Shown: piece after piece, positions 11,671 to 24,081 of the stretch
Numbering within the stretch: the stretch's first letter is position 1
Layout: each line of letters starts with the position of its first letter
Assembly (NCBI GenBank): GCA_900317325.1
Contig: ONGE01000001.1
Location: 161,891 to 225,890 of the forward strand
Source: an uncultured Prevotellaceae bacterium
Lineage (GTDB): Bacteria > Bacteroidota > Bacteroidia > Bacteroidales > Muribaculaceae
DNA length: 64,000 bases
Reading direction: 5' to 3'
Translations under genes and position numbers: made by a program
Notes under the pieces: model-generated
The model's database searches: none
Seen by the model: only the letters and a program-made list of their open reading frames with translations
What the model was told of the DNA's origin: nothing

Positions 11671-12255
11671 CTACACCGATTCCTGAACTTTTTGTTCAAG
11701 CTCCTGCAGCTTTTCTATTTCGGGGTCGAGAATGGGTTTCTTAGCCTTATTTTTCTTGTCAGTAAACATGATGAACCTTATCCACAGAGCGAACATGGCG
11801 ATGCCGCCCAGCACGGCAAGATACAACGGGCACCAGCGCATCAAGACCACCCCTACAAGCAATGAGACAGGAACCGACAGGCCATAAAGGCCGTATTTGC
11901 TCTTCTGTTCTTCATCTTCAAGGCAAGCCAGCATTTCCTGTGAAGTGTCGGCATGAAGAACCTTGTGGGCAACCAAAGCCTTATAACCATTAGACAATGC
12001 CCATATCAGCCAGAAGGCTACTATAAAAAACAGCTTAACCCCGTTAGAACTCACATGCACAATCAGTGCGGCAATCGAAAGGAGCCCACACATTAACGCC
12101 GATACGATATCAAACCAAAACTTAAAACGATAATTCTGTCTGATGATACGCTTGCGCATCGCTATCTGCTTGTTCAGCTTCTCTCGGTCAGCACTCATTG
12201 CCGATTGGTCCCTGACTGAACTGCCGTTGGTAATATCGGTTTTAACCTGTTCCAT
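11671..12255 (-). CDS. Small membrane protein, paralog 1 of a four-member family
   Basis: 194 aa, about 4 TM, motif ADTSQEMLACLE, C-terminal EIEKLQEL. Confidence 0.75.
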   Translation of the reverse strand: MEQVKTDITNGSSVRDQSAMSADREKLNKQIAMRKRIIRQNYRFKFWFDIVSALMCGLLSIAALIVHVSSNGVKLFFIVAFWLIWALSNGYKALVAHKVLHADTSQEMLACLEDEEQKSKYGLYGLSVPVSLLVGVVLMRWCPLYLAVLGGIAMFALWIRFIMFTDKKNKAKKPILDPEIEKLQELEQKVQESV

Positions 12256-12283
12256 GATAAAACGGTGATTTATATGTCATTAA

Positions 12284-12793
12284 TCATTTACCTTGACCTA
12301 CCAGCTCCCGCAAGCGCTTAATGTCATCGTATCGATTACGGTTCAACAAATAGATGAGAACGAACAAAAACACCAGCGCCGCCGCCAAAATCAGAAACAC
12401 CATGAGATCGTCGAGCCAGAAGTACAAGGATAGAAGAAATACCACTCCCAGGGGTATCGTATACAGATAGGTCTTTTTATTGTAATTATCAATCGCCGCC
12501 AGCAACTTGACCGGGGTCTCACTCTGTGAAACAGCCTTAACATATTTTACAGACATGACAATGGATACTAAGAAGGTGATTACCAGGACAGCATCAAAGC
12601 ATAATTTGGCGATATTCTCGGTATCCCATTGATGGGTTGAATCAATGGGGTATAAATCCCTAAAGAGATACACCATCCACATGATCATAAAAGGCACCAT
12701 CCACCATTTGGTGTATTTGTTCTGGTAACTGACAGTGTCCTTGATGCGGTCCATCAACACCTCTTGTTCGTTGTAATTAGAATCCTGTTCCAT
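12284..12793 (-). CDS. Small membrane protein, paralog 2
   Basis: 169 aa, about 4 TM, motif SETPVKLLAAID, C-terminal DIKRLRELV. Confidence 0.75.
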   Translation of the reverse strand: MEQDSNYNEQEVLMDRIKDTVSYQNKYTKWWMVPFMIMWMVYLFRDLYPIDSTHQWDTENIAKLCFDAVLVITFLVSIVMSVKYVKAVSQSETPVKLLAAIDNYNKKTYLYTIPLGVVFLLSLYFWLDDLMVFLILAAALVFLFVLIYLLNRNRYDDIKRLRELVGQGK

Positions 12794-12943
12794 ATTTTCA
12801 AACAGTTTTTAATCGTTTTTTACCTGTGAGGCGCATTCAGGCATCAAATAACTACAGTTTTCAGCCATTTCAACCCAAACAAAAACCTTTTTTAATACTT
12901 TATTACCTAGCCGATGAGTTGTTCGTCATGATGTCTCCGGCTA

Positions 12944-13468
12944 TTATTCTTTAGAGAGCAAGTCGCGCAGGCGTTCTAATTCTTTTTCAACGGGCTTCTT
13001 ATCTCCCTTGTTAAAATGGGACCATACGAGAAAACCGATAATGATGAGCGCAAGAGCAGAAAACAGCAAAGTTGTTGCCAAACTGACTTTTCCGAAATCA
13101 GAATAGATGTCATAACCTATGTACAAAACCAGCACAAACGCTGCTATGTAGCCAAAAATCTTATTAGCCTTAGTATACTTATCGTACATGTCCACCAACC
13201 GATGAGCGTCTTCACATTTACTCATCTTCTTTTTCCACCAAGTATCAAAACCAAAGAGGGCAAGAAGAAAAGCCGGTAAAGTCCATCGCGTAGACGCCCA
13301 ATCGCCGGTGACTAAACCCATGACTATATTGTACACTATAAGGAGCAGTACAAGGCCTCCACACCCGATGTTGTTCTTTGCATCAGAGTCAAACTCGCGC
13401 TTGATGTCCTCAATCAGTTCATCCTTGCTGAATTTCTCGACCCAATCTTTCTTTTCTTGTTGTTCCAT
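12944..13468 (-). CDS. Small membrane protein, paralog 3
   Basis: Start at MEQQEKK; about 4 TM, motif CEDAHRLVDMYD, C-terminal ELERLRDLL. Confidence 0.75.
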   Translation of the reverse strand: MEQQEKKDWVEKFSKDELIEDIKREFDSDAKNNIGCGGLVLLLIVYNIVMGLVTGDWASTRWTLPAFLLALFGFDTWWKKKMSKCEDAHRLVDMYDKYTKANKIFGYIAAFVLVLYIGYDIYSDFGKVSLATTLLFSALALIIIGFLVWSHFNKGDKKPVEKELERLRDLLSKE

Positions 13469-13961: not shown

Positions 13962-14000
13962 CAGCATCCGCACCCCATTTTTTCTGAGGTGCGGATGCTG
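13962..14000. terminator. Bidirectional terminator between convergent YbjQ and GH31 genes
   Basis: 13-bp perfect stem CAGCATCCGCACC / GGTGCGGATGCTG. Confidence 0.75.
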
Positions 14001-14032
14001 AAATTTGTACACTGCGTGAAACTTGTAGTTTC

Positions 14033-16402
14033 CTATTTTGAGATTTCAATGATTGTGGCCTCGTTGATATCGGCGATGTTGACAGGAATGGTGAGGGTGG
14101 CAGTGCGCTTGTCGTAGACCACGCCGGCAGCTTTCCTACCGTTTATTTTCACCTTGCCCTGCTTGGTCGTGGCAGGGATGATCAGGCGATATTCCTTGTT
14201 GGGGGTGTCGCCATTAATGTTACCCTTGCCCTGGATGGTGATGAAGCAGTTCTTGCCCTGAGGTGTGGCGGTGAACTGAATCTCGCGGTGCTTCTCCCTG
14301 TCGAGCGTGCCCGTGGACTGCAGGTCATCGTCAAACAGGGTGAACGTTGACGGAGTGCTGCTGGTGTAATACACGATGTCAAGTTTGTCGGGGTTGTAGT
14401 CACCCACATTATCCATCGGGTAGTTGGCCTGCGGGATGAAGGCTCCGGCGCGGACAAACAGCGGCAGTACCTCGAGCGGTGCGGCGTAGTTGACGGTCGT
14501 GTGACCTGCATAGCGCTTCTCGGGATGATTGATATCGACCCAAGTTCCCTCGGGGAAAGTGATGTCGCGGCTCACGGCGCCCTGTTGCATCACGGGAGCA
14601 ACCATCACGTCATGGCCCCACAGGTATTGATCCCAAATATTGTCATAGCGAGCGATATTCTTATCGTCCTCGTAGAAGCCCAGCGGACGCACCATCGGCA
14701 GACCGTTGCGCGCGTTTTCATAAGCCAGCGTGTAGTTATAGGGCAACCAGGTGTAGCGCTGCTTGATGATGCGCAGCGTGAGGTCGCCGAACTCGGTATA
14801 GTGATAAGGCTCGGCATGATAGGTCGAGTGGGTGCGCAGCATGGGCGAGAACAAGCCTAGCTGCAGCCAGCGGATGTAGAGTTCGCCGTCGCGCTTATTG
14901 GCAGGATCAACGGCAAAGCCGCCCACGTCGTGCGACATGTAGCCCAGACCGCTCAGGCCCGCATTGAGCATGATGGTCACCTGGGGCTGCAGACCGCCCC
15001 ACGAGCGGGACACGTCGGTTGACCAGGGAAAGACCGAATAGCGCTGCAGGCCAGCCGTACCGGCCCGCATCATGACCATCGGGCGACGGTCAGGGTAATC
15101 CTCCTTGAACATGTCATAGATGATGCGGCTCCACTCGTTGCCGTAGTAGTTGTGGTACTGCTCAGCGGTCAGGCCGTTGTAGTGGCGGATTTCCAGCGGA
15201 TGCTTCTCGGGCTCGCCAAGGTCTCCCCACCAGCCGGTCACGCCCTCGTCGGTGAGGGATTTATAACGGTTGTGCAGCCACTGGCGCGTGGCGGGGTTGG
15301 ACACGTCAAACATGCCGCCCTGTCCCACCCAGATGGTGACCGTGTGGGTCGTGTCGGCGCCGTCGGTCTTGCAGAAGATGCCTTGAGGATCCAACAACTT
15401 GTAGTTGTCGATGGCGCGGCCGTTGGTTAGCACATAGGGCTGTGAGATGGTCACCACGTTGACGCCCTTCTGCTTGAAATTGCGCAACATGCCACGATGG
15501 TCGGGCCACTGCTGCTTGTCCCACTCCAGACGTCCCATGTCCTCCTCCTTGCCGTACCAGTACAGGTCGAACACGATGCCGTCGAGCGGATAGCCCTCAC
15601 GCTTGAGGGTATCGACCACGCCCTCGCTCTCGCGCTGGTCACGGTAGCCATATTTAGAGGTGATGTAGCCCAGCGTCCACAGTGGCGGCAGCTCCTGACG
15701 GCCCACGAGCCAGGTGAAGTTCCTGACCACATTTTCCACCTTGCCGTTGCCACCGATGACATAATAGGACACCGGCTGCGGCGACGTGGTGGTATATTGG
15801 ATTTGATCGCCCAGATAGAGCGAGGACTTGCAGAAGTCGTCAAAGAAGATGCCATAGCCCTTGGATGAAATCACCATCGGCATGGTGATGCCCATCAGTT
15901 TGGTGCGCTTCTCGCCCATCTGGTAGCCATAGTTCTGGCTGTTGTAGTTGATGAGCGTATCGCCGGCCAGGTTGAACGAGTAGCCACGCTCGCCCGCACC
16001 GTAGAACGACTCCTGGCCGTAGTGCAGCAGCGTCAGCTTCGATGAGCCGCGGTCACACAGGTCGGTGATGTAATAACCATTGCGGCAGCCCACCGTGATG
16101 CTGCCCATGGTCCTGTCCAGCACCACCTTCATGCCGCTGCCGGTGCGCATCACACTCATGTCCTCCAACTCCTCGACGTTAATCTCGGCCTTGGCGGTCT
16201 TGTCCAGTGCCAGCGATGGCAGGCGTGTGCCGTTCCACCCGTCGGGCACCACATCCACACGCACAATGTCCTCGCCCACGGCAGTCACCGTTACGGTCTG
16301 GTGGCGTGTTGCGTCGTTAAACGTCATCGTTGCCTGCTGTGCCAGAGCCGTCAGTGCCAGCATCGCCACAGCGAGAATTGATGTCATCCTGTAAAGTTTC
16401 AT
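14033..16402 (-). CDS. Secreted glycoside hydrolase family 31 (alpha-glucosidase or alpha-transglucosylase)
   Basis: Signal peptide; YGAGER, LDGIVFDLYW, WWGDLGEPE nucleophile region, WSTDVSRSW acid/base region, SHDVGGF, ELYIRWLQLG, PLFVRAGAFIP. Confidence 0.93.
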   Translation of the reverse strand: MKLYRMTSILAVAMLALTALAQQATMTFNDATRHQTVTVTAVGEDIVRVDVVPDGWNGTRLPSLALDKTAKAEINVEELEDMSVMRTGSGMKVVLDRTMGSITVGCRNGYYITDLCDRGSSKLTLLHYGQESFYGAGERGYSFNLAGDTLINYNSQNYGYQMGEKRTKLMGITMPMVISSKGYGIFFDDFCKSSLYLGDQIQYTTTSPQPVSYYVIGGNGKVENVVRNFTWLVGRQELPPLWTLGYITSKYGYRDQRESEGVVDTLKREGYPLDGIVFDLYWYGKEEDMGRLEWDKQQWPDHRGMLRNFKQKGVNVVTISQPYVLTNGRAIDNYKLLDPQGIFCKTDGADTTHTVTIWVGQGGMFDVSNPATRQWLHNRYKSLTDEGVTGWWGDLGEPEKHPLEIRHYNGLTAEQYHNYYGNEWSRIIYDMFKEDYPDRRPMVMMRAGTAGLQRYSVFPWSTDVSRSWGGLQPQVTIMLNAGLSGLGYMSHDVGGFAVDPANKRDGELYIRWLQLGLFSPMLRTHSTYHAEPYHYTEFGDLTLRIIKQRYTWLPYNYTLAYENARNGLPMVRPLGFYEDDKNIARYDNIWDQYLWGHDVMVAPVMQQGAVSRDITFPEGTWVDINHPEKRYAGHTTVNYAAPLEVLPLFVRAGAFIPQANYPMDNVGDYNPDKLDIVYYTSSTPSTFTLFDDDLQSTGTLDREKHREIQFTATPQGKNCFITIQGKGNINGDTPNKEYRLIIPATTKQGKVKINGRKAAGVVYDKRTATLTIPVNIADINEATIIEISK

Positions 16403-16453
16403 CGTCTATCTATTGATTTTAATTAATAATTCTCAAGACAGCATGCATTGAAG

Positions 16454-17119
16454 TCAAGCATTGCCCTCGCTTTCTTTCAAGAGTGCCCGCAGTTGCCTCA
16501 ACTCATGTTTAGACTCTGCGTCTTCATCTCCATCTTCTCCTCCAAGTCCTGCACCAAACAACTTTTCCCCTTTAAAAACTGAAAGCATCAATATTAAAAA
16601 GCCTATTCCCTCAAGGAGGTCAAGTCCAGAGAAATAGAGGAGCGCACTCTCGGCAACCAGCAGCATCATCGCCACCCATAGCCTGAGCTTTTGGTTCATG
16701 ACCAGCCAATTAGCCACCAAGAACAACACAACGGCCAACACTTTACATGTTTTAGACACAAGGTTACCGTCGTCCAACAGGACCAAGCCGACCATAAAAG
16801 CCAGCAAAAGAACTGACTCCAAAATCCACTTCCTATCATAGACGGCCAATAATTCCTGAGGTGTTTCGGCGCGGGCCATTTTCCTGCCATAAATAATCTC
16901 AAAAAGTCCAAACAGGAGCAGACCTGCCCCAATGGTGAAAAACAGAGATGCACCCTCATAGCCATTATCGTGAATATCGAATAATAAGTAGGCCCCAAAG
17001 GTAAAAGGTAACACCGACAAGATGATGAGCCATTTGAGCTTACCATAGTTCCTGGTAATTGACCGCTGGATGCTTCCCATCAACCATTCAATCTCTTTAT
17101 TTCTTTCTTCTTCGGTCAT
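16454..17119 (-). CDS. Small membrane protein, paralog 4
   Basis: Start MTEEERNK; several TM segments, motif AETPQELLAVYD, C-terminal ELRQLRALL; own -7 box (CAAAGATA on + strand at 17145-17152). Confidence 0.75.
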   Translation of the reverse strand: MTEEERNKEIEWLMGSIQRSITRNYGKLKWLIILSVLPFTFGAYLLFDIHDNGYEGASLFFTIGAGLLLFGLFEIIYGRKMARAETPQELLAVYDRKWILESVLLLAFMVGLVLLDDGNLVSKTCKVLAVVLFLVANWLVMNQKLRLWVAMMLLVAESALLYFSGLDLLEGIGFLILMLSVFKGEKLFGAGLGGEDGDEDAESKHELRQLRALLKESEGNA

Positions 17120-17231
17120 AAAACTAATCACTGGTTATCATCGGCAAAGATAAAAGAAATATCCAATAAAACGATGACATTTTGTTAAAAAAAGAAAGCG
17201 GACTGGCCTGCAAGCCTTAGAAATGAAAAAT

Positions 17232-17266
17232 GAAGGGCTCGCCAAGGTCATTTTGGCAAGCCCTCC
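17232..17266 (-). terminator. Terminator of the DUF6717-vWA/macro transcript
   Basis: Imperfect stem GAAGGGCTCGCCAA / TTGGCAAGCCCTCC, followed by a T-rich run on the minus strand. Confidence 0.6.
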
Positions 17267-17360
17267 AATCGGGGTAAACAAGTCGGGGTGTGTTCTTCAG
17301 CCTTGTGGAGTAAAACAGTTATTCAATACTATTGGTAACCTTGAGGGTTTCCTTCCCGGC

Positions 17361-18482
17361 TCACTTGCGGAACATCTTGAGGCCGAGGATTTCCCAGAAG
17401 TCCTCAGGCAAGCAGATGTTCTCGATCTTGATGGCATCAACAAACACGCGAGCCACATCACGCACGTCGCGGCCCGCGTTGCCGCAACCCACGCGGGTGA
17501 CCAGGAAGCGTTTCTCGGGGTGTGCGGCGGCATAACTGATGAAACGCTGCACTGCCTGGGCGAACAGGATGTGGTCGCCCGTGGCGGGGATGGCGTAGCT
17601 CTGGCCCTGCATACCCTCGCCCTGGCCCTCAATGGCACCGAAGTGCTTCACGGCATGGGCTGCGGCACCGCCGGCATGGTGCCCCTCGGGATTGCTGCCG
17701 AAGACAAAGACCTCGCCTTCGGCCAGCTGATCGATCCAGTCGGGAGTGATGCGGTCGGCATAGTAGGCGCGGGCATTGGCACGACGAATGGCCATTTTCC
17801 TCTCAAGGGTTGCTTTTGAGTCAAAGTCGCGGTTCATGCGCTCATAGTAGGCGCGCTTGGACGAGCTGTCGCGGTGCCACGTGTTGGATGCGCCCACATC
17901 ATTGTGGTCGAACGCCATGACATGGTCGATGGACAACTTCATGGTCACCTCCACCACATCGTGGCACGAGCCCATGTAGGAGAAAGACCAACCCTCTTCC
18001 TTGAGGCGCTCGATGAGTTTGCGCAGTGCCTCGCCTGACCACTCGCGGGAAGCGTTCTCCAGACCGTCGGTGATGACTGTCACAACAGCAGTGGCATTCT
18101 CATCGTCCTTGATGCGCTCGTGCAGCCTGGTCAGTGACTGGCCCATGGCGTCGAACAAGGGCGTGCAGCCACGGGGTCTGTAGTCATGGAAGTCATGCAC
18201 GCCGGCGATGGGCATGGCATCGATGTGGGTGCGGACGAGAGGCACGCCGCCACCGCGTTCGTCAAAGCACACCAGTGTGAGGAAGTGCTGCTGCTTGTCG
18301 GCAAAATCTTCCTGCGCCTTCCTGATGGTGGCGATGGTCTCGTTGATGCCGCTGATGGTCACCTGCTCCAGGCCACCCATCGAGCCGCTCTCATCGACGA
18401 TGATGAGGTTGTAGATGTGGGCCTTGTCGGGGTCAACAGCCTGTACATTCCTGTTCTCGTTGTTCTTGATCTGATCGTTCAT
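17361..18482 (-). CDS. vWA domain protein fused to a C-terminal A1S_2505-type macrodomain-like domain
   Basis: MIDAS motif IVDESGSM, TPLFDA, VITDGLEN; C-terminal EVFVFGSNPEGHHAGGAA, GEGMQGQSYAIP, FLVTRVGCGNAG. Confidence 0.85.
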   Translation of the reverse strand: MNDQIKNNENRNVQAVDPDKAHIYNLIIVDESGSMGGLEQVTISGINETIATIRKAQEDFADKQQHFLTLVCFDERGGGVPLVRTHIDAMPIAGVHDFHDYRPRGCTPLFDAMGQSLTRLHERIKDDENATAVVTVITDGLENASREWSGEALRKLIERLKEEGWSFSYMGSCHDVVEVTMKLSIDHVMAFDHNDVGASNTWHRDSSSKRAYYERMNRDFDSKATLERKMAIRRANARAYYADRITPDWIDQLAEGEVFVFGSNPEGHHAGGAAAHAVKHFGAIEGQGEGMQGQSYAIPATGDHILFAQAVQRFISYAAAHPEKRFLVTRVGCGNAGRDVRDVARVFVDAIKIENICLPEDFWEILGLKMFRK

Positions 18483-18550
18483 AGCAATAATGTGTTAAAA
18501 TGTTGATGATTGTTGATTGAATGCGTCTATGAGATAAATCCTGCTTGAGG

Positions 18551-18979
18551 TCAAGCGGCAGATTCGTTTTTCTTGATGTAGAGGTACTTGGGATAGCGGC
18601 CCAGCACGAACAGCGTCACGGGGCAGAGCCAGATCTCGCGCTCAAAGCCTTCCAGTTCAGTGACGTTGTAGAACGAACCCCCTGTCAAGGAATGTTCGCC
18701 CTGAATCAGGCAAGCATAGCCGGGTTTATCGAGCGGCTTGTTGCTGGGGATGACACTGATGTGGGCAAACCTGTCGTCATCGCTCAGGAACTCGCACAGT
18801 TTGTCGGCTCCGGCCACCATCATCAGGTTGTGGTGGTCAAACGGCCAACCCGGAAAGTCAACATACCACTTCCCGTCTTCCTCGTGGTTGAACTGAAGAC
18901 TGTACTCATCACGGCGACCAAACACGCTGCGCGACATCACTTGTGCTCCATGGAGCAAATCATTGATTGAAAAAGACAT
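18551..18979 (-). CDS. DUF6717-like protein
   Basis: Start MSFSINDLL; WYVDFPGW, LMMVAGADKLCEFL, WLCPVTLFVLGRYPKYLY resemble DUF6717 as I recall it. Confidence 0.75.
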   Translation of the reverse strand: MSFSINDLLHGAQVMSRSVFGRRDEYSLQFNHEEDGKWYVDFPGWPFDHHNLMMVAGADKLCEFLSDDDRFAHISVIPSNKPLDKPGYACLIQGEHSLTGGSFYNVTELEGFEREIWLCPVTLFVLGRYPKYLYIKKNESAA

Positions 18980-19030
18980 AACAAAAAAGTTTATTAGGAT
19001 ATTAACCAAGTTTATTTCTCACCGATAGTG

Positions 19031-19153
19031 CAAAATTACATCATGTTTACATGCGGCTTCATTTTCTGCAACCTTGCCAAAATGTAATTATTACACATTG
19101 ACAAAACGAGCCGAAAATTTCAGGATCAACACAATGTGTAATATTTACACATT
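19031..19153 (-). promoter_or_regulatory. Promoter of the DUF6717-vWA/macro operon with two NrtR-type operators
   Basis: -7 box (CAAAATTA on + strand at 19031-19038); AAAATGTAATTATTACACATT 19079-19099 and AATGTGTAATATTTACACATT 19133-19153, both GT-N7-AC. Confidence 0.75.
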
Positions 19154-19230
19154 AAGCATTGATTTGCAATGTAGACCCCACCCGCTGTCACCGGGAAGAG
19201 TTCAAGTTGATTCAGTCACCTGCCACTGTG

Positions 19231-19962
19231 TCAGAATTCCAGGCGCATGCCTATCTTCTTGGCGCGGGCGTAGGCTTCCTCGTCAAAAGTGTACAACTTG
19301 GGAGAGCGGTGAGGGTTTCCTGTCACCTTTTTCCCGGTCTCCCTGATATACCCGAGTTTCAACATCTTTTTTTGAAAATTCCTTCGGTCACTGAGTTTAA
19401 TGTCATCCTCGGGCGGATCCAAAATAGCTTTATAAATATTATGTAACTGGGGCATTGTGAATTCCTTGTCAAGCAAGTGAAAACCAATGGGTTCAAAATG
19501 TATTCGTTGACGTAGTCGTTCCAGGGCCAGTTCGATGATCGCCTTGTGGTCAAAGGCCAGTTCAGGCAATTCCTTCACTGGGAACCACATGGCTTTGCTG
19601 GCATCGTCGCCGCCCTTGACGCGATACTTATCTTTTACCACAAGAGCAAAGAACGCAATGGTGATGACACGCTCACGGGGATCGCGGCCACGGTTCGAGA
19701 ACGTGTGGAACTCCTCCATATAGATGTCATCCACATCGGTCTCCTCACGCAACTCGCGATAAGCACAGGCCTCGGCGCTCTCATCCTCGGGACGCATGAA
19801 GCCGCCGGGCAGCGCCCACATATTCTTATAAGGTTCCAGGCCTCGCTGGATGAGCAGGACATTCAATTGCTCACCGTCAAAGCCCACAACCACCGAGTCG
19901 GTCGTCACGGCAGGATGCCAGTAAGGCGATTCCCATTGCTTGGTTTGCTCATTGTATTTCAT
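19231..19962 (-). CDS. nrtR: NrtR family transcriptional regulator (Nudix plus winged HTH)
   Basis: PAVTTDSVVVGFD, WALPGGF..RELREET Nudix box, RDPRERVITIA, LAFDH, FTMPQL...DRRNFQKKM...GNPHRSPKLY wHTH. Confidence 0.9.
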   Translation of the reverse strand: MKYNEQTKQWESPYWHPAVTTDSVVVGFDGEQLNVLLIQRGLEPYKNMWALPGGFMRPEDESAEACAYRELREETDVDDIYMEEFHTFSNRGRDPRERVITIAFFALVVKDKYRVKGGDDASKAMWFPVKELPELAFDHKAIIELALERLRQRIHFEPIGFHLLDKEFTMPQLHNIYKAILDPPEDDIKLSDRRNFQKKMLKLGYIRETGKKVTGNPHRSPKLYTFDEEAYARAKKIGMRLEF

Positions 19963-19974
19963 CGTCAATTACCC

Positions 19975-20049
19975 TTTGTGTATTTTTTACACTGCAAAAA
20001 TAATGCCAATTTTTCTAACCACCAAATATTTTTGTGTATTTTTTACACT
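19975..20049 (-). promoter_or_regulatory. nrtR promoter with two identical autoregulatory operators
   Basis: TTTGTGTATTTTTTACACT at 19975-19993 and 20031-20049 (GTGTA-N5-TACAC, i.e. GT-N7-AC); -7 box 19995-20002 and -33 box 20023-20026 with a 20-bp spacer on the minus strand. Confidence 0.8.
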
Positions 20050-20253
20050 TTAATAAATAACACTACTGATTTTCAATAAGTTAGAAACCTATGTCATCTG
20101 ACATGCCAATAAAGCACATGACAGCAGCTGTCATGCGGCATTCTACCCCCTTGTAAACAATGTGTCAAAAGAATGTAGATAACGGCTGTGTGCAGATTCA
20201 AGCATTTTCATTAATTTTGCACTCACGAAAAAAACAGAACCGAATTTTATATA

Positions 20254-21822
20254 ATGGAAGAATTTGAAGTAGGCAAACAGGCACGTCGCCGCACGCGCCC
20301 CACGCATGAGCCCGAAATCGTCAGCGAGTTCGGCAAGTTGCCCCCGCAGGACACCTCGCTCGAGGATGCCGTGCTTGGTGCCATCATGCTCGAGAAAGAC
20401 GCTTATAACAATGTGTGCGAGATTCTCAAGCCCGAGGCATTCTACAACCCTGCCAACCAGAAGATCTACGAAGCCATCCAGTCGCTCGCGGCCGAAGGCA
20501 AGCCCATCGACATGCTCACCGTGACCGATAAGTTGCGTGCCAACAAGGTGCTCGACGAGGTGGGCGGCGCCATCCGCATCAGCGAGTTGACAGGCCTGGT
20601 GTCAAGTGCTGCCAATGCCGAGTTCCACGCCCGCATCGTGGCGCAGAAGTACCTTGCCCGCGAGCTCATCAGCTACAGCAGCCAGGTGCAAGCACTCGCT
20701 TTCGACGACTCCATCGATGTGTATGACCTGATGCAAGAGGCCGAGGGCAAACTTTTTGAAATCAGCAAGAACACCCTCAAGCGCGACGTCATTCCCATCG
20801 AGAACGCCGTCCAGGACGCCATCAAGAAGATCGAGGAGGCCGCTAACCGCGAGAGCGGCATGAGTGGTCTGGAATCAGGCTTCTACAAGCTGGACCGCCT
20901 GACCAGCGGCTGGCAAAACAGTGACCTGATCATCATCGCGGCGCGCCCTGCCATGGGTAAAACGGCTTTTGTCCTGTCGATGGCCAAGAACATGGCTGTG
21001 GAATACAACCACCCCGTCGCCGTGTTCTCGCTCGAGATGTCGAGTCTACAGCTGGTGAACCGCCTCATCAGCAACGTGTGCTCGCTCGAGGGTGAAAAAA
21101 TCAAGAGCGGCCAGCTCAGCCAGCCCGAGTGGGAGAACCTGATGACACGCACCCGCAGCCTGAGTACCGCACCCCTGTATATCGACGACACCCCCTCGCT
21201 GTCCATCTTTGAGTTGAGGACCAAGGCACGCCGCCTGGTGCGTGAGCACGGCGTCAAGATTATCATCATCGACTACCTGCAGCTGATGAACGCCACGGGC
21301 ATGAAGTTCGGCAGCCGCGAGCAAGAGGTGAGCACCATCTCGCGTAACCTCAAGCAGCTCGCCAAGGAGCTGGACATCCCCATCATCGCATTGTCACAGC
21401 TCAACCGCAGTGTGGAGACCCGTGCCGTCGACGACAAGATGGGCAAGCGCCCGCAGCTGAGCGACTTGCGCGAGTCGGGAGCCATCGAGCAGGATGCCGA
21501 CATCGTGTGCTTCATCCACCGTCCCGAGTACTACCTGAAGTCGGGAGTTGACGCCGAGGGCAACGACATCCGCGGCATGGCCGAGTTTATCGTCGCCAAG
21601 CACCGCAGCGGTGCCACCGACACCATCAACCTGCACTTCGTGAGCAAGTATGCCCGCTTCGAGAACGACAACGAGAAAGACCTCGTGGGCGGCGAGACCA
21701 CCTACGAGTCCAAGATGAACACCGGAACAACTGGCGCCTCGCCTGTAGCCGACGGCTTCACCCCACCGCCCCCCAATGTCGATTTCCTTCAAGGTCCCGA
21801 AGACAAAGACCAACCCTTCTAG
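20254..21822 (+). CDS. dnaB: Replicative DNA helicase
   Basis: LPPQD..LEDAVLGAIMLE, IIAARPAMGKT Walker A, FSLEMS, IIIDYLQLM, ALSQLNR, SDLRESGAIEQDAD. Confidence 0.97.
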   Translation: MEEFEVGKQARRRTRPTHEPEIVSEFGKLPPQDTSLEDAVLGAIMLEKDAYNNVCEILKPEAFYNPANQKIYEAIQSLAAEGKPIDMLTVTDKLRANKVLDEVGGAIRISELTGLVSSAANAEFHARIVAQKYLARELISYSSQVQALAFDDSIDVYDLMQEAEGKLFEISKNTLKRDVIPIENAVQDAIKKIEEAANRESGMSGLESGFYKLDRLTSGWQNSDLIIIAARPAMGKTAFVLSMAKNMAVEYNHPVAVFSLEMSSLQLVNRLISNVCSLEGEKIKSGQLSQPEWENLMTRTRSLSTAPLYIDDTPSLSIFELRTKARRLVREHGVKIIIIDYLQLMNATGMKFGSREQEVSTISRNLKQLAKELDIPIIALSQLNRSVETRAVDDKMGKRPQLSDLRESGAIEQDADIVCFIHRPEYYLKSGVDAEGNDIRGMAEFIVAKHRSGATDTINLHFVSKYARFENDNEKDLVGGETTYESKMNTGTTGASPVADGFTPPPPNVDFLQGPEDKDQPF

Positions 21823-21929
21823 AAGGAATTAGAATGAGATAAACCGGGATTCTATAAGAAGATTCAAGAGTTTATACTATTTTTGCGGTCTGGAAGTTAA
21901 CATACAACCTAAACTATAGTTTAATTATA

Positions 21930-23954
21930 ATGAAAAAGATGTTATTAGCTATGGCCATAATGATGGCTGCAGTGCCTGGTGTGCAGGCACAAGTAACACA
22001 CGGCGTCACGCGCGCCGACATGGACCTGAGCGTAAAGCCGGGTGATGATTTCTACGAGTATGCCGGTGGTGGCTGGATGAAAGCCAACCCGCTGAGCAAG
22101 CATCCCGAGTATGCCAGCTATGGCGTGTTCAATGTTCTCGCCGAGGAGAACGAGAACCGCCTGCGCGACATGTTCCTGGAACTGGGCAAGACCGAGCACA
22201 AGTTTGGCACCGTGGACCAGAAAGTCGCCGACCTGTACAAGATGGCCATGGACAGTGACCGCCTGAACCGTGAAGGCGTACAACCGCTGTTGCCCGACCT
22301 GGCCAAACTCAAAGCGTTCAAGAAGGCCGACTTGACCCGTTTCATTGCCGACCAGCACTTGACGCTGAGCAACCCGTTCTTCAGCATCGGCGTGGAGACC
22401 GATCTCAAGAACAGTGACATGAACGTGATGTGGCTCGAAGCCGGTACCAGTGGTCTGCCCGACAGGGACTACTACCTGAACACCGATGCCGACAGCAAGA
22501 AGATCCAGCAGGCCTACAAGAACTTCCTGGTGAAGATGTTCACCCTTGCCGGTTACAGCAAGAAGGAGGCTAACCGCGCCTGCAAGACCATCTACGACAT
22601 TGAGTACAAGTTCGCCCAGGCCAAGATGGACCGCGCCGAGGCCCGTGACTACACCAAGCTCTACAACATCCGCACCCTCGACCAGCTGCAGGCCGACTAT
22701 CCCGCCATCAACTGGAAGGAGTACTTCAACCTGATGGGCACGCCCACCGTGGAATGGGTTATCCTGACCCAGCCCAAGGTGATGGCAGTTGCCAACGACC
22801 TGATGACCAAGCTCAACGAGCAGCAGATGCGTGACTACATGGCAGGACTGATCATCCGTGGCGCCGCCAACTACTTGAGCGACGACTTCGGTGAGGCCTC
22901 ATTTGACTTCTATGGCCGCACCCTGAGCGGACAGAAGGAGCGCAAGCCTCGCTGGAAACGCGCCTTGGGTCTGCCCAACGGACTGCTCGGCGAAGCTGTC
23001 GGTGAGGTTTACGTGAGCAAGTACTTTGCCCATGGCAGCAAGGAGAAAATGATGAAGCTCATCAACGAGCTGCGCAAGTCGCTGGCCGCCCACATCGCCG
23101 GCCTGACTTGGATGAGCGAGCAGACCAAGATCAACGCCCTGGTGAAGCTCAACGCCTTCACCGTCAAGATCGGTTATCCCGACAAGTGGCGCGACTACAG
23201 CGGCCTGCAGGTTGATCCCAGCAAGAGCATGTATGAGAACATCAAGGCTGCCAGCCTGTATGAGACCCGTCGCAACCTCGACAAGATGGGCAAGCCCGTT
23301 GATAAGGACGAATGGGGCATGACACCGCAAACGGTGAACGCCTACTACAACCCCACCACCAACGAGATCTGCTTCCCCGCCGCCATCCTGCAACCTCCCT
23401 TCTTTGACGTGGAGGCCGACGATGCCACCAACTTCGGTGCCATCGGTGTTGTGATTGGCCACGAGATGACCCACGGCTTTGACGATCAGGGCCGCATGTT
23501 CGACCAGTACGGCAACATGACCGACTGGTGGACCGAGGAGGACAGCAAGCAGTTCCAAGAGACCGCCGAGAAACTCGCTGAGCAGTTCGACCAACTCATC
23601 GTCGTTAAAGACCAGCATGCCAACGGTCACCTGACCCTGGGTGAGAACATCGCCGACCAGGGTGGCCTGCGCATCGCCTACGATGCTTTCAAAACGACGC
23701 AGCAGTTCCGCGAGGGCAAGAAGATTGATGGTTTCACACCCGAACAGCGCTTCTACCTGAGCTACGGCCGCATCTGGGCCAACAACATGACCGAGGAAGC
23801 CATCTTCCAGCAGACCAAGAGTGATCCCCACTCCATCGGTCGCTACCGCGTGAACGCCACGCTGAGGAACATCGACACCTTCTTTGACGCCTTCGGCATC
23901 AAGGCTGGTGACAAGATGTGGCTCGATCCCGCCGACCGTGCCATCATTTGGTAA
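21930..23954 (+). CDS. M13 family metalloendopeptidase (PepO/neprilysin-like)
   Basis: Signal peptide; VKPGDDFYEYA, VNAYYNP, HEMTH zinc motif, GENIAD, YRVN. Confidence 0.95.
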   Translation: MKKMLLAMAIMMAAVPGVQAQVTHGVTRADMDLSVKPGDDFYEYAGGGWMKANPLSKHPEYASYGVFNVLAEENENRLRDMFLELGKTEHKFGTVDQKVADLYKMAMDSDRLNREGVQPLLPDLAKLKAFKKADLTRFIADQHLTLSNPFFSIGVETDLKNSDMNVMWLEAGTSGLPDRDYYLNTDADSKKIQQAYKNFLVKMFTLAGYSKKEANRACKTIYDIEYKFAQAKMDRAEARDYTKLYNIRTLDQLQADYPAINWKEYFNLMGTPTVEWVILTQPKVMAVANDLMTKLNEQQMRDYMAGLIIRGAANYLSDDFGEASFDFYGRTLSGQKERKPRWKRALGLPNGLLGEAVGEVYVSKYFAHGSKEKMMKLINELRKSLAAHIAGLTWMSEQTKINALVKLNAFTVKIGYPDKWRDYSGLQVDPSKSMYENIKAASLYETRRNLDKMGKPVDKDEWGMTPQTVNAYYNPTTNEICFPAAILQPPFFDVEADDATNFGAIGVVIGHEMTHGFDDQGRMFDQYGNMTDWWTEEDSKQFQETAEKLAEQFDQLIVVKDQHANGHLTLGENIADQGGLRIAYDAFKTTQQFREGKKIDGFTPEQRFYLSYGRIWANNMTEEAIFQQTKSDPHSIGRYRVNATLRNIDTFFDAFGIKAGDKMWLDPADRAIIW

Positions 23955-23961
23955 AGTATGA

Positions 23962-24081
23962 TTCAAGGTCTGAAGCGCAACGCGCACTTCAGACCTTGAA
24001 GTTTAGAGTTTAGTGGTTAGAGTTTAGAGACGAAACTCTATACATAAGCAATCAAGTCCCGGGATTTCCGGGACTTGATTG
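23962..24081. terminator. Two strong hairpins separated by a 7-nt-period tract, between convergent genes
   Basis: 14-bp perfect stems at 23962-24000 and 24049-24081. Confidence 0.7.

Follow-up and report, generated by a model that had tools for sequence, protein, structure and literature searches.

Defense by cleavage of nicotinamide adenine dinucleotide (NAD+) and the toxins that modify their targets with adenosine diphosphate (ADP)-ribose are well documented, while the sensing and repair of such damage is almost uncharted. The closest described systems are the "ARG-centric" neighborhoods, which are centered on an ADP-ribosylglycohydrolase and contain Nudix-helix-turn-helix (HTH) or WYL repressors, phosphatases, chaperones including von Willebrand factor A (vWA) proteins, and accessory Macro and NADAR domains (Iyer, Burroughs, Anantharaman, Aravind 2022; Viruses 14:1977, section 3.8; PMC9503650). 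They were reported from actinobacteria, planctomycetes, and proteobacteria and were proposed to be induced by ADP-ribose and to undo the ADP-ribosylation that phages inflict (Iyer et al., 2022; PMC9503650). In Streptomyces, nrtR lies beside draG, and reversible ADP-ribosylation is among the NrtR-linked pathways (Rodionov et al., 2008; PMC2330246). BtAraR (BT0354) is a Bacteroides repressor of the NrtR family that responds to L-arabinose (Chang et al., 2015; PMC4666351; PDB 5bs6/5dd4/5deq), and an orphan hydrolase, a bacterial PARG acting against RhsP2, can shield cells from an antibacterial toxin with ADP-ribosylating activity (Lu et al., 2025; PMC11833690). Here, we analyze a stretch of 64,000 nucleotides of contig ONGE01000001.1 (assembly GCA_900317325.1; the whole stretch is called the window) from an uncultured gut Bacteroidales bacterium, in which three co-oriented minus-strand genes encode an NrtR-like repressor, a DUF6717 protein, and a fusion of a vWA domain with an A1S_2505 domain. 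We read them as a self-contained accessory cassette, an ADP-ribose-induced module that would erase foreign ADP-ribose marks, and give this reading a probability of roughly 0.55.

The repressor gene (243 aa; 19231..19962, minus strand like all features of the cassette) encodes a Nudix domain (PF00293 at 4.5e-20 in Pfam) and a winged-helix DNA-binding domain (NrtR_WHD, PF21906 at 2e-18). This is the layout of the NrtR family, with an N-terminal Nudix-like domain and a C-terminal winged helix, and the protein aligns over its full length to BtAraR and SoNrtR. A TTG at 19968 was dropped as its start codon in favor of the ATG at 19962; orthologues open with MKYNE. After a spacer of 251 bp follows the DUF6717 gene (142 aa; 18551..18979), which encodes a small beta-rich domain with an invariant W-x-C motif, and after another 68 bp the fusion gene (373 aa; 17361..18482), which is recognized by an NCBIfam match and by its metal ion-dependent adhesion site (MIDAS) residues. 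The operon is closed by a strong intrinsic terminator (17231..17267) with a 15-bp stem of which 8 pairs are GC, followed by a T run. An earlier sequence-only reading had described three co-oriented genes closed by a single terminator, with GT-N7-AC palindromes upstream of nrtR and of the two-gene operon; this arrangement was confirmed, and four palindromes were found.

These operators have the 15-bp form rTGTAw-N3-wTACAy, which contains GT-N7-AC, and were searched with the pattern RTGTAWWWWWTACAY, which matches four times in the window against 0.00 expected from 100 dinucleotide shuffles. In the whole 3.47-Mb genome the motif has four matches in all, every one at the cassette, and allowing one mismatch adds only six more, all scattered singletons. 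The sites form two pairs. Upstream of nrtR lie the distal O1 (GTGTAAAAAATACAC on the gene strand; 20034..20048) and the proximal O2 (19978..19992), 56 bp apart from center to center, while the operon of DUF6717 and the fusion gene is preceded by the distal O3 (GTGTAAATATTACAC; 19136..19150) and by O4 (GTGTAATAATTACAT; 19082..19096), 54 bp apart. The Bacteroidetes -7 promoter consensus is TAnnTTTG, and a putative box of this type, TATTTTTG (19995..20002), can be read upstream of nrtR. O2 begins 3 nt after this box and so covers the expected nrtR transcription start, which suggests that nrtR is autoregulated through O2. A putative -7-like box, TAATTTTG (19031..19038), lies 52 nt upstream of the DUF6717 start codon, with O4 and O3 at 44 and 98 nt upstream of the box. 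Since the operators occur nowhere else in the genome and tblastn found no second Nudix-winged-HTH protein there, the predicted regulon is exactly this locus. On another contig (C4:11270-11794) a Nudix-only protein of 174 aa, which is 49% identical to the Nudix domain of the regulator and has no winged helix, is possibly a housekeeping ADP-ribose pyrophosphatase related to the sensor domain. With the described NrtR regulons the cassette shares the two-domain regulator, the GT-N7-AC-type palindromes, and the predicted autoregulation, and among them a glycohydrolase neighbor is on record for Streptomyces; the characterized regulons, however, serve NAD synthesis and salvage or pentose use, and the cassette regulon has neither (Rodionov et al., 2008; PMC2330246).

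BtAraR is the closest solved homologue of the regulator, and the two are alike in their paired operator sites and in an almost identical operator, whose half-site and spacing equal those in the crystal (GTGTTA-N3-TTACAC in BtAraR, GTGTAA-N3-TTACAC here). The DNA-reading residues are also kept: BtAraR K179, R180, N181, and K184, which read GTGT in the crystal structure with the operator, correspond to R-R-N ... K in the regulator (Chang et al., 2015; PMC4666351). The effector pocket differs. From the positions listed by Chang et al. (2015; PMC4666351) as closing the nucleotide cleft in AraR, three were compared between SoNrtR, BtAraR, and the regulator with all its orthologues. SoNrtR Arg98, which contacts the diphosphate and the ribose, is Gly in BtAraR and Arg in the regulator and its orthologues (RDPR, against RDPG in AraR); Lys76 is replaced by Leu in BtAraR and by the canonical Nudix glutamate (REUxEE) in the regulator group; Asn43 is Phe in BtAraR and Leu or Ile in the group. 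AraR further has a degenerate Nudix box and a filled nucleotide cleft, whereas the Nudix box of the regulator is near-canonical and that of several orthologues perfect, and no ara genes stand under the motif of the cassette regulator. The pocket thus looks suited to a nucleoside-diphosphate sugar rather than to a free pentose. One of the three positions matches clearly, one is neutral, and one speaks against, which makes ADP-ribose no more than the best guess for the effector.

A link to ADP-ribose on the side of the regulated genes comes from the C-terminal domain of the fusion protein (about residues 256-373; 17364..17717). Residues 258-362 match NF049995 ("A1S_2505 family phage non-structural protein") with 118.5 bits against a cut-off of 45. 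The AlphaFold2 (AF2) model of residues 236-373 has a mean predicted local distance difference test score (pLDDT) of 92 and a predicted template modeling score (pTM) of 0.88. In a Foldseek search of the PDB with this model the top 50 matches were nearly all macrodomains, or designed proteins among them, with template modeling (TM) scores of 0.55-0.66 and a probability of about 1.0. TARG1 was the best match (E 2.3e-3, TM 0.62-0.66), and the other macrodomains matched include DarG, Poa1p, the PARP9/14/15 macro domains, macroH2A, and viral macrodomains. As modeled, the C-terminal domain is a macro fold, as had been proposed from the sequence; a LOG/SLOG-like reading of this domain was not backed by the fold search. 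Its loops read FVFGSNxxGxHxGGAA and FLVTRVGCGNAG in the window protein, and an alignment of 61 stand-alone and fused homologues keeps them as FVFGSNxxGxHGGGAAxxA and FLVTRIGCGIAG. The elements N-x4-H-x-G-G and G-C-G-x-A-G within them presumably resemble two macrodomain loops, the one for the distal ribose and diphosphate and the one for phosphate. Both glycine-rich loops of the ADP-ribose-binding type thus appear to be kept in a divergent macrodomain. Macrodomain hydrolases such as TARG1 and DarG share with it the macro fold and both glycine-rich loops, and an orphan hydrolase that has no cognate transferase follows the logic of the described protective enzymes (Lu et al., 2025; PMC11833690). 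The cassette domain, however, has no sequence-level similarity to solved macrodomains, is smaller (about 120 aa), and is fused to a vWA domain.

The predicted vWA domain in the N-terminal half (about residues 20-200; 17883..18425) has a complete MIDAS (DESGS, T107, TDG), in which D30, S32, S34, T107, and D139 are invariant among 31 homologues. The window protein itself matches the vWA region of TIGR02442 at 2.5e-4, below the cut-off of that profile, and has no vWA match in Pfam; close homologues (about 80% identical) carry PF00092, and a profile of the family reaches TRAP vWA structures at 2e-3.

Full-length vWA-macro proteins were collected at 17 loci in five families of the order, namely the window, nine loci from a sample of 201 genomes of the family, one metagenome contig, two more genomes of the genus, and four genomes from four other families; the genomes are relatives, and the counts are descriptive and not a statistical test. 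The relatives are full length and undisrupted, at 44-95% identity. NrtR is adjacent in 12 of the 17 loci, DUF6717 in seven, on either side of the fusion gene, and an ADP-ribosylglycohydrolase (PF03747, 1e-37 to 1e-40) is part of the operon in five, while one locus (L076) combines NrtR, DUF6717, glycohydrolase, and vWA-macro. All five loci without an adjacent nrtR still have operator-like sites upstream of the vWA-macro gene, and in four of them the genome has one NrtR orthologue elsewhere; the two of these orthologues that belong to the genus of the window have operator-like sites upstream. In L032-L040, L042, L069, L077, L078, and L080 the motif is found upstream of nrtR and of the vWA-macro or glycohydrolase genes, and the paired layout recurs in L069, L038, L039, L040, and L077. 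The expectation that these genes would co-occur in other genomes was therefore borne out. Gene content differs between close relatives, and in related genomes the regulon also recruits the glycohydrolase or a NADAR-like protein, so that it would act as a variable module for erasing foreign ADP-ribose. The single glycohydrolase of the genome of the window lies on another contig and has no operator.

Some of these loci, and some others, have further neighbors. L044 (G050:C9, 3729-7062) and L045 (G133:C3, 4071-6837) show a second neighborhood of the ADP-ribose type. In L044 NrtR stands with a DUF6717-like protein, a fusion of macro and DUF1810 domains, and a DUF6939 protein that weakly matches the NADAR antitoxin associated with DarT1, and in L045 DUF6717, DUF6939, and an A1S_2505 macro-domain protein are neighbors; NrtR is present only in the former. 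L058 (G120:C18, 608-1306, minus strand) shows an nrtR that is apart from the vWA-macro/DUF6717 operon and is followed by a gene judged sirtuin-like by eye (GAGISAESG...FRD), which would add an NAD-consuming deacylase to the same small regulon. A protein with a TIR domain (PF13676 at 2.6e-20; ThsB-like matches in PADLOC) is convergent to the vWA-macro gene in L039 (G062:C195, 7211-8209, minus strand). In L033 (G112:C18, 7397-13063, minus strand) five or six co-oriented genes lie downstream of the vWA-macro gene, among them P-loop proteins, recognized by eye, and one protein with weak matches to the dynamin-like defense proteins LeoA/LeoBC, and this run may be a defense island.

The cassette is accessory. 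In two species of the genus (G207 and G202), whose DnaB is 91% identical, the site is empty, with only about 180 bp between the flanking GH31 and dnaB genes, and no full-length vWA-macro gene was found anywhere in these two genomes; in G211 the cassette occupies the same site as in the window. The fusion gene is present in about 10 of 201 genomes of the family. Samples of 400 genomes each gave, with its own genome not counted, 4 carriers across the order and no carrier in the remainder of the phylum. Its macro (A1S_2505) family is also found in 264 phage records, mostly N4-like, and a few of these were labeled macrodomain or O-acetyl-ADP-ribose deacetylase by their depositors. Homologues of DUF6717 occur in Cellulophaga phages and in a cyanophage; the neighborhood of the phage homologue was uninformative.

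The cassette and its relatives agree with the ARG-centric systems in having a one-component regulator of the Nudix-HTH (NrtR) type that acts negatively, a vWA "chaperone", Macro and NADAR domains to process ADP-ribose, no linked ADP-ribosyltransferase, and a gene content that varies between close genomes, and some of the relatives carry the ADP-ribosylglycohydrolase itself. The published systems, however, are built on the glycohydrolase as core gene and often contain phosphatases, whereas the cassette contains neither, has the vWA-macro fusion as its constant core, includes DUF6717, which is not mentioned by Iyer et al. (2022; PMC9503650), and belongs to Bacteroidales. The supposition that the three-gene architecture was undescribed has to be given up in this form, as systems of this type had already been predicted (Iyer et al., 2022; PMC9503650) and the nrtR-draG pair reported (PMC2330246). 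What is new is a glycohydrolase-less, macro-centered Bacteroidales version with DUF6717 of a kind of system that is known from prediction alone. As a whole, the interpretation offered by the sequence-only reading is supported at the level that computation allows, and the points named there as possible refutations, checked to the same extent, came out in its favor on the macro fold, on the co-occurrence of the genes, and on the agreement of the operators with that of BtAraR.

In the mechanism that we propose, dimers of NrtR would occupy both operator pairs in the resting cell and hold expression close to zero. Free ADP-ribose, or a compound closely derived from it, could rise when NAD+ is cleaved by TIR or other NADases, or alternatively through foreign ADP-ribosyltransferases (phage or interbacterial toxins) or through basal hydrolases that free ADP-ribose from modified targets; the genome of the window has six TIR-domain matches on contigs C16, C26, C27, and C40, and thus several potential NADase sources of ADP-ribose. 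Binding of ADP-ribose in the Nudix pocket would release NrtR from the DNA, and the macro domain of the induced protein would then bind, and probably remove, ADP-ribose from modified macromolecules, while the vWA domain would keep hold of the substrate protein or of a partner. DUF6717 may contribute to this complex or step, whether with a cysteine-dependent activity or as a subunit that confers specificity or serves as an adaptor. Once ADP-ribose is cleared, repression would return. The cassette represents a minimal version of such a system: it consists of a single repressor with four operators and of two structural genes, and the regulon has no further members. This minimal form, its presence in a gut bacterial lineage, and the natural presence and absence variants at the same chromosomal site make the idea directly testable.

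The role of DUF6717 is the most novel part of the proposal. The gene product of the window matches PF20475 at 3.9e-23 and its family comprises about 1,000 clusters at 50% identity, mostly stand-alone proteins of 110-160 aa; the literature searched does not mention it. Across distant members, the phage protein included, the invariant residues are mostly hydrophobic or glycine, together with one cysteine, that of W-x-C, which is C119 in the 142-aa protein. The structure model is fairly confident (pLDDT 85) and mostly beta, and a profile of the family had no match among PDB sequences. Ten long DUF6717 proteins show no second domain in Pfam, although BLAST then revealed that two of them are vWA-macro or macro fusions. 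DUF6717-vWA-macro fusions are represented by P0117 and P0369 and a DUF6717-macro fusion by P0405, from which we argue that DUF6717 works with the macro domain; the glycohydrolase is likewise found fused to the macro domain (P0193, P0204). A role of DUF6717 as a plain substitute for the glycohydrolase was rejected, since L076 has both. Compared by size and topology only, DUF6717 seems different from the ARPP and TY-chaperone families of Iyer et al. (2022). Tentatively, then, and with less confidence than the erasing function as such, DUF6717 may be a new ADP-ribose-linked domain built around a single invariant cysteine, which with the vWA-macro protein would form a glycohydrolase-independent, ADP-ribose-induced module that recognizes and repairs foreign ADP-ribosylation in gut Bacteroidales. 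If this holds, a member of the NrtR family would serve as a dedicated danger sensor with the module as its whole regulon, and the cassette would be a first tractable case of a host immunity that is induced to counter ADP-ribosylating phage proteins or interbacterial toxins. The analysis also gives the large A1S_2505 family of phages and bacteria a likely fold and ligand, and DUF6717 a place in the ADP-ribose network. Distant paralogues of DUF6717 (about 43-50% identity) in four genomes of the family (L046, L050, L053, and L056) show a second conserved pairing of the domain: they have no adjacent macro or vWA gene and always adjoin an unannotated, unrelated protein of about 295 aa.

A number of results weigh against reading the cassette as an ADP-ribose-induced eraser. 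The regulator is a member of the NrtR family and lies outside the NCBIfam equivalog NF050029 ("ADPR responsive transcriptional repressor"), where it scores 132.5 bits against a cut-off of 400. By sequence it stands nearer to the L-arabinose sensor BtAraR (2.7e-40) than to SoNrtR (6.7e-27), and the case for ADP-ribose as effector therefore depends on pocket residues and gene context, not on orthology. Three pocket positions distinguish the two sensors, and a single one agrees with SoNrtR, as Leu44 resembles BtAraR Phe36 and Glu76 matches neither. The macro domain lies below detection by sequence: Pfam Macro (PF01661) has no match in the fusion protein, and neither the profile of 61 sequences nor the full vWA-macro protein found a macrodomain among PDB sequences. 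For the DUF6717 model, Foldseek returned nothing usable from the PDB (TM at most 0.33). PADLOC-DB 2.0 gave no match for DUF6717 or the vWA-macro protein and only a weak Nudix match for NrtR (PDC-S07, 1.4e-8), and PADLOC assigned no system. No ADP-ribosyltransferase or phage gene is linked to the cassette, and the ARG-centric system type is itself a computational prediction alone (PMC9503650).

The proximity to BtAraR raises the question whether the regulator is a sugar-responsive repressor of the AraR/XylR type, with an operon unrelated to ADP-ribose and a macro-like fold that is a structural coincidence. The almost identical operator, the position of Leu44 at the place of BtAraR Phe36, which fills the phosphate site, and the control of pentose use by the Bacteroidetes members of the NrtR family known so far (Rodionov et al., 2008; PMC2330246) agree with this. 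We nevertheless regard it as the most improbable of the explanations considered, as the motif is confined to the cassette locus and no sugar catabolic or transport gene is regulated, RDPR replaces the RDPG of BtAraR, the Nudix catalytic helix is intact, unlike that of AraR, and the genes regulated across the 17 loci encode macro, glycohydrolase, and NADAR-like proteins. Scarcely more probable is a remnant of phage counter-defense genes (macro and DUF6717) that was captured by the chromosome and is selfish or neutral. The 264 phage records of the macro family, mostly N4-like, the homologues of DUF6717 in Cellulophaga phages and a cyanophage, and the name "phage non-structural protein" of the NCBIfam family would suit such an origin; it is opposed by the dedicated host-type repressor, by operators that are conserved across five families, by proteins that are full length and undisrupted at 44-95% identity, and by the lack of an integrase, phage structural gene, or repeat boundary among the open reading frames (ORFs) listed for 14000-24000.

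Two further explanations assign the cassette another task. NrtR regulons of the classical kind serve metabolism (Rodionov et al., 2008; PMC2330246), and the macro domain could serve in the housekeeping clearance of NAD-derived metabolites, by deacylating the O-acetyl-ADP-ribose of sirtuins or by dephosphorylating ADP-ribose-1''-phosphate, with NrtR tuning expression to free ADP-ribose and no role in conflict. The sirtuin-like gene behind the stand-alone nrtR in G120, the sirtuin in the genome of the window, and the annotation of some phage homologues as O-acetyl-ADP-ribose deacetylase are in line with this. Sirtuins and NAD turnover are universal, however, whereas most genomes of the family lack the cassette and close relatives have an empty site; the variable gene content between close relatives also speaks against such a function, and the fusion to a protein-binding vWA domain and the pairing with the glycohydrolase point to macromolecular substrates, which together make it unlikely. 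The cassette could instead control the NADase/TIR immune signaling of its own host, if the macro domain degraded or sequestered ADP-ribose-derived signals (cyclic or glycosylated isomers) or cleaned up after TIR/SIR2 activation, and so reset or damped the defense of the cell instead of reversing foreign modification. Macro domains with a predicted action on TIR products have been described (Iyer et al., 2022; PMC9503650), phages carry the macro family, which fits the degradation of a signal, and the six TIR-domain matches in the genome and the convergent TIR protein of L039 suit this view. Adjacency to TIR is seen in only 1 of the 17 loci, however, the recurring partners being the ADP-ribosylglycohydrolase, an enzyme argued to prefer macromolecular adducts (PMC9503650), and the NADAR-like protein, and the vWA fusion again suggests a protein target; we therefore consider it quite unlikely, somewhat more so than the clearance of metabolites. 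The erasing of foreign ADP-ribose marks remains the reading that we prefer.

The cassette is flanked by genes for a GH31 glycosidase, a small membrane protein, DnaB, and an M13 peptidase, and the claim that no NAD synthesis or salvage gene lies nearby held among these neighbors. No Rfam element was found within the cassette region, and an antisense ORF of 198 aa inside the fusion gene (17223-17819, plus strand) was taken as a spurious chance frame in GC-rich coding sequence. The membrane protein between GH31 and the cassette (225 aa, multi-pass; 16454-17131, minus strand) is missing at the matching site both in G211, where the cassette is present, and in G207 and G202, where the cassette is missing too, and is therefore a separate variable insert. 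According to the initial reading of the sequence, paralogues of this protein lie at 11671-13468 of the window.

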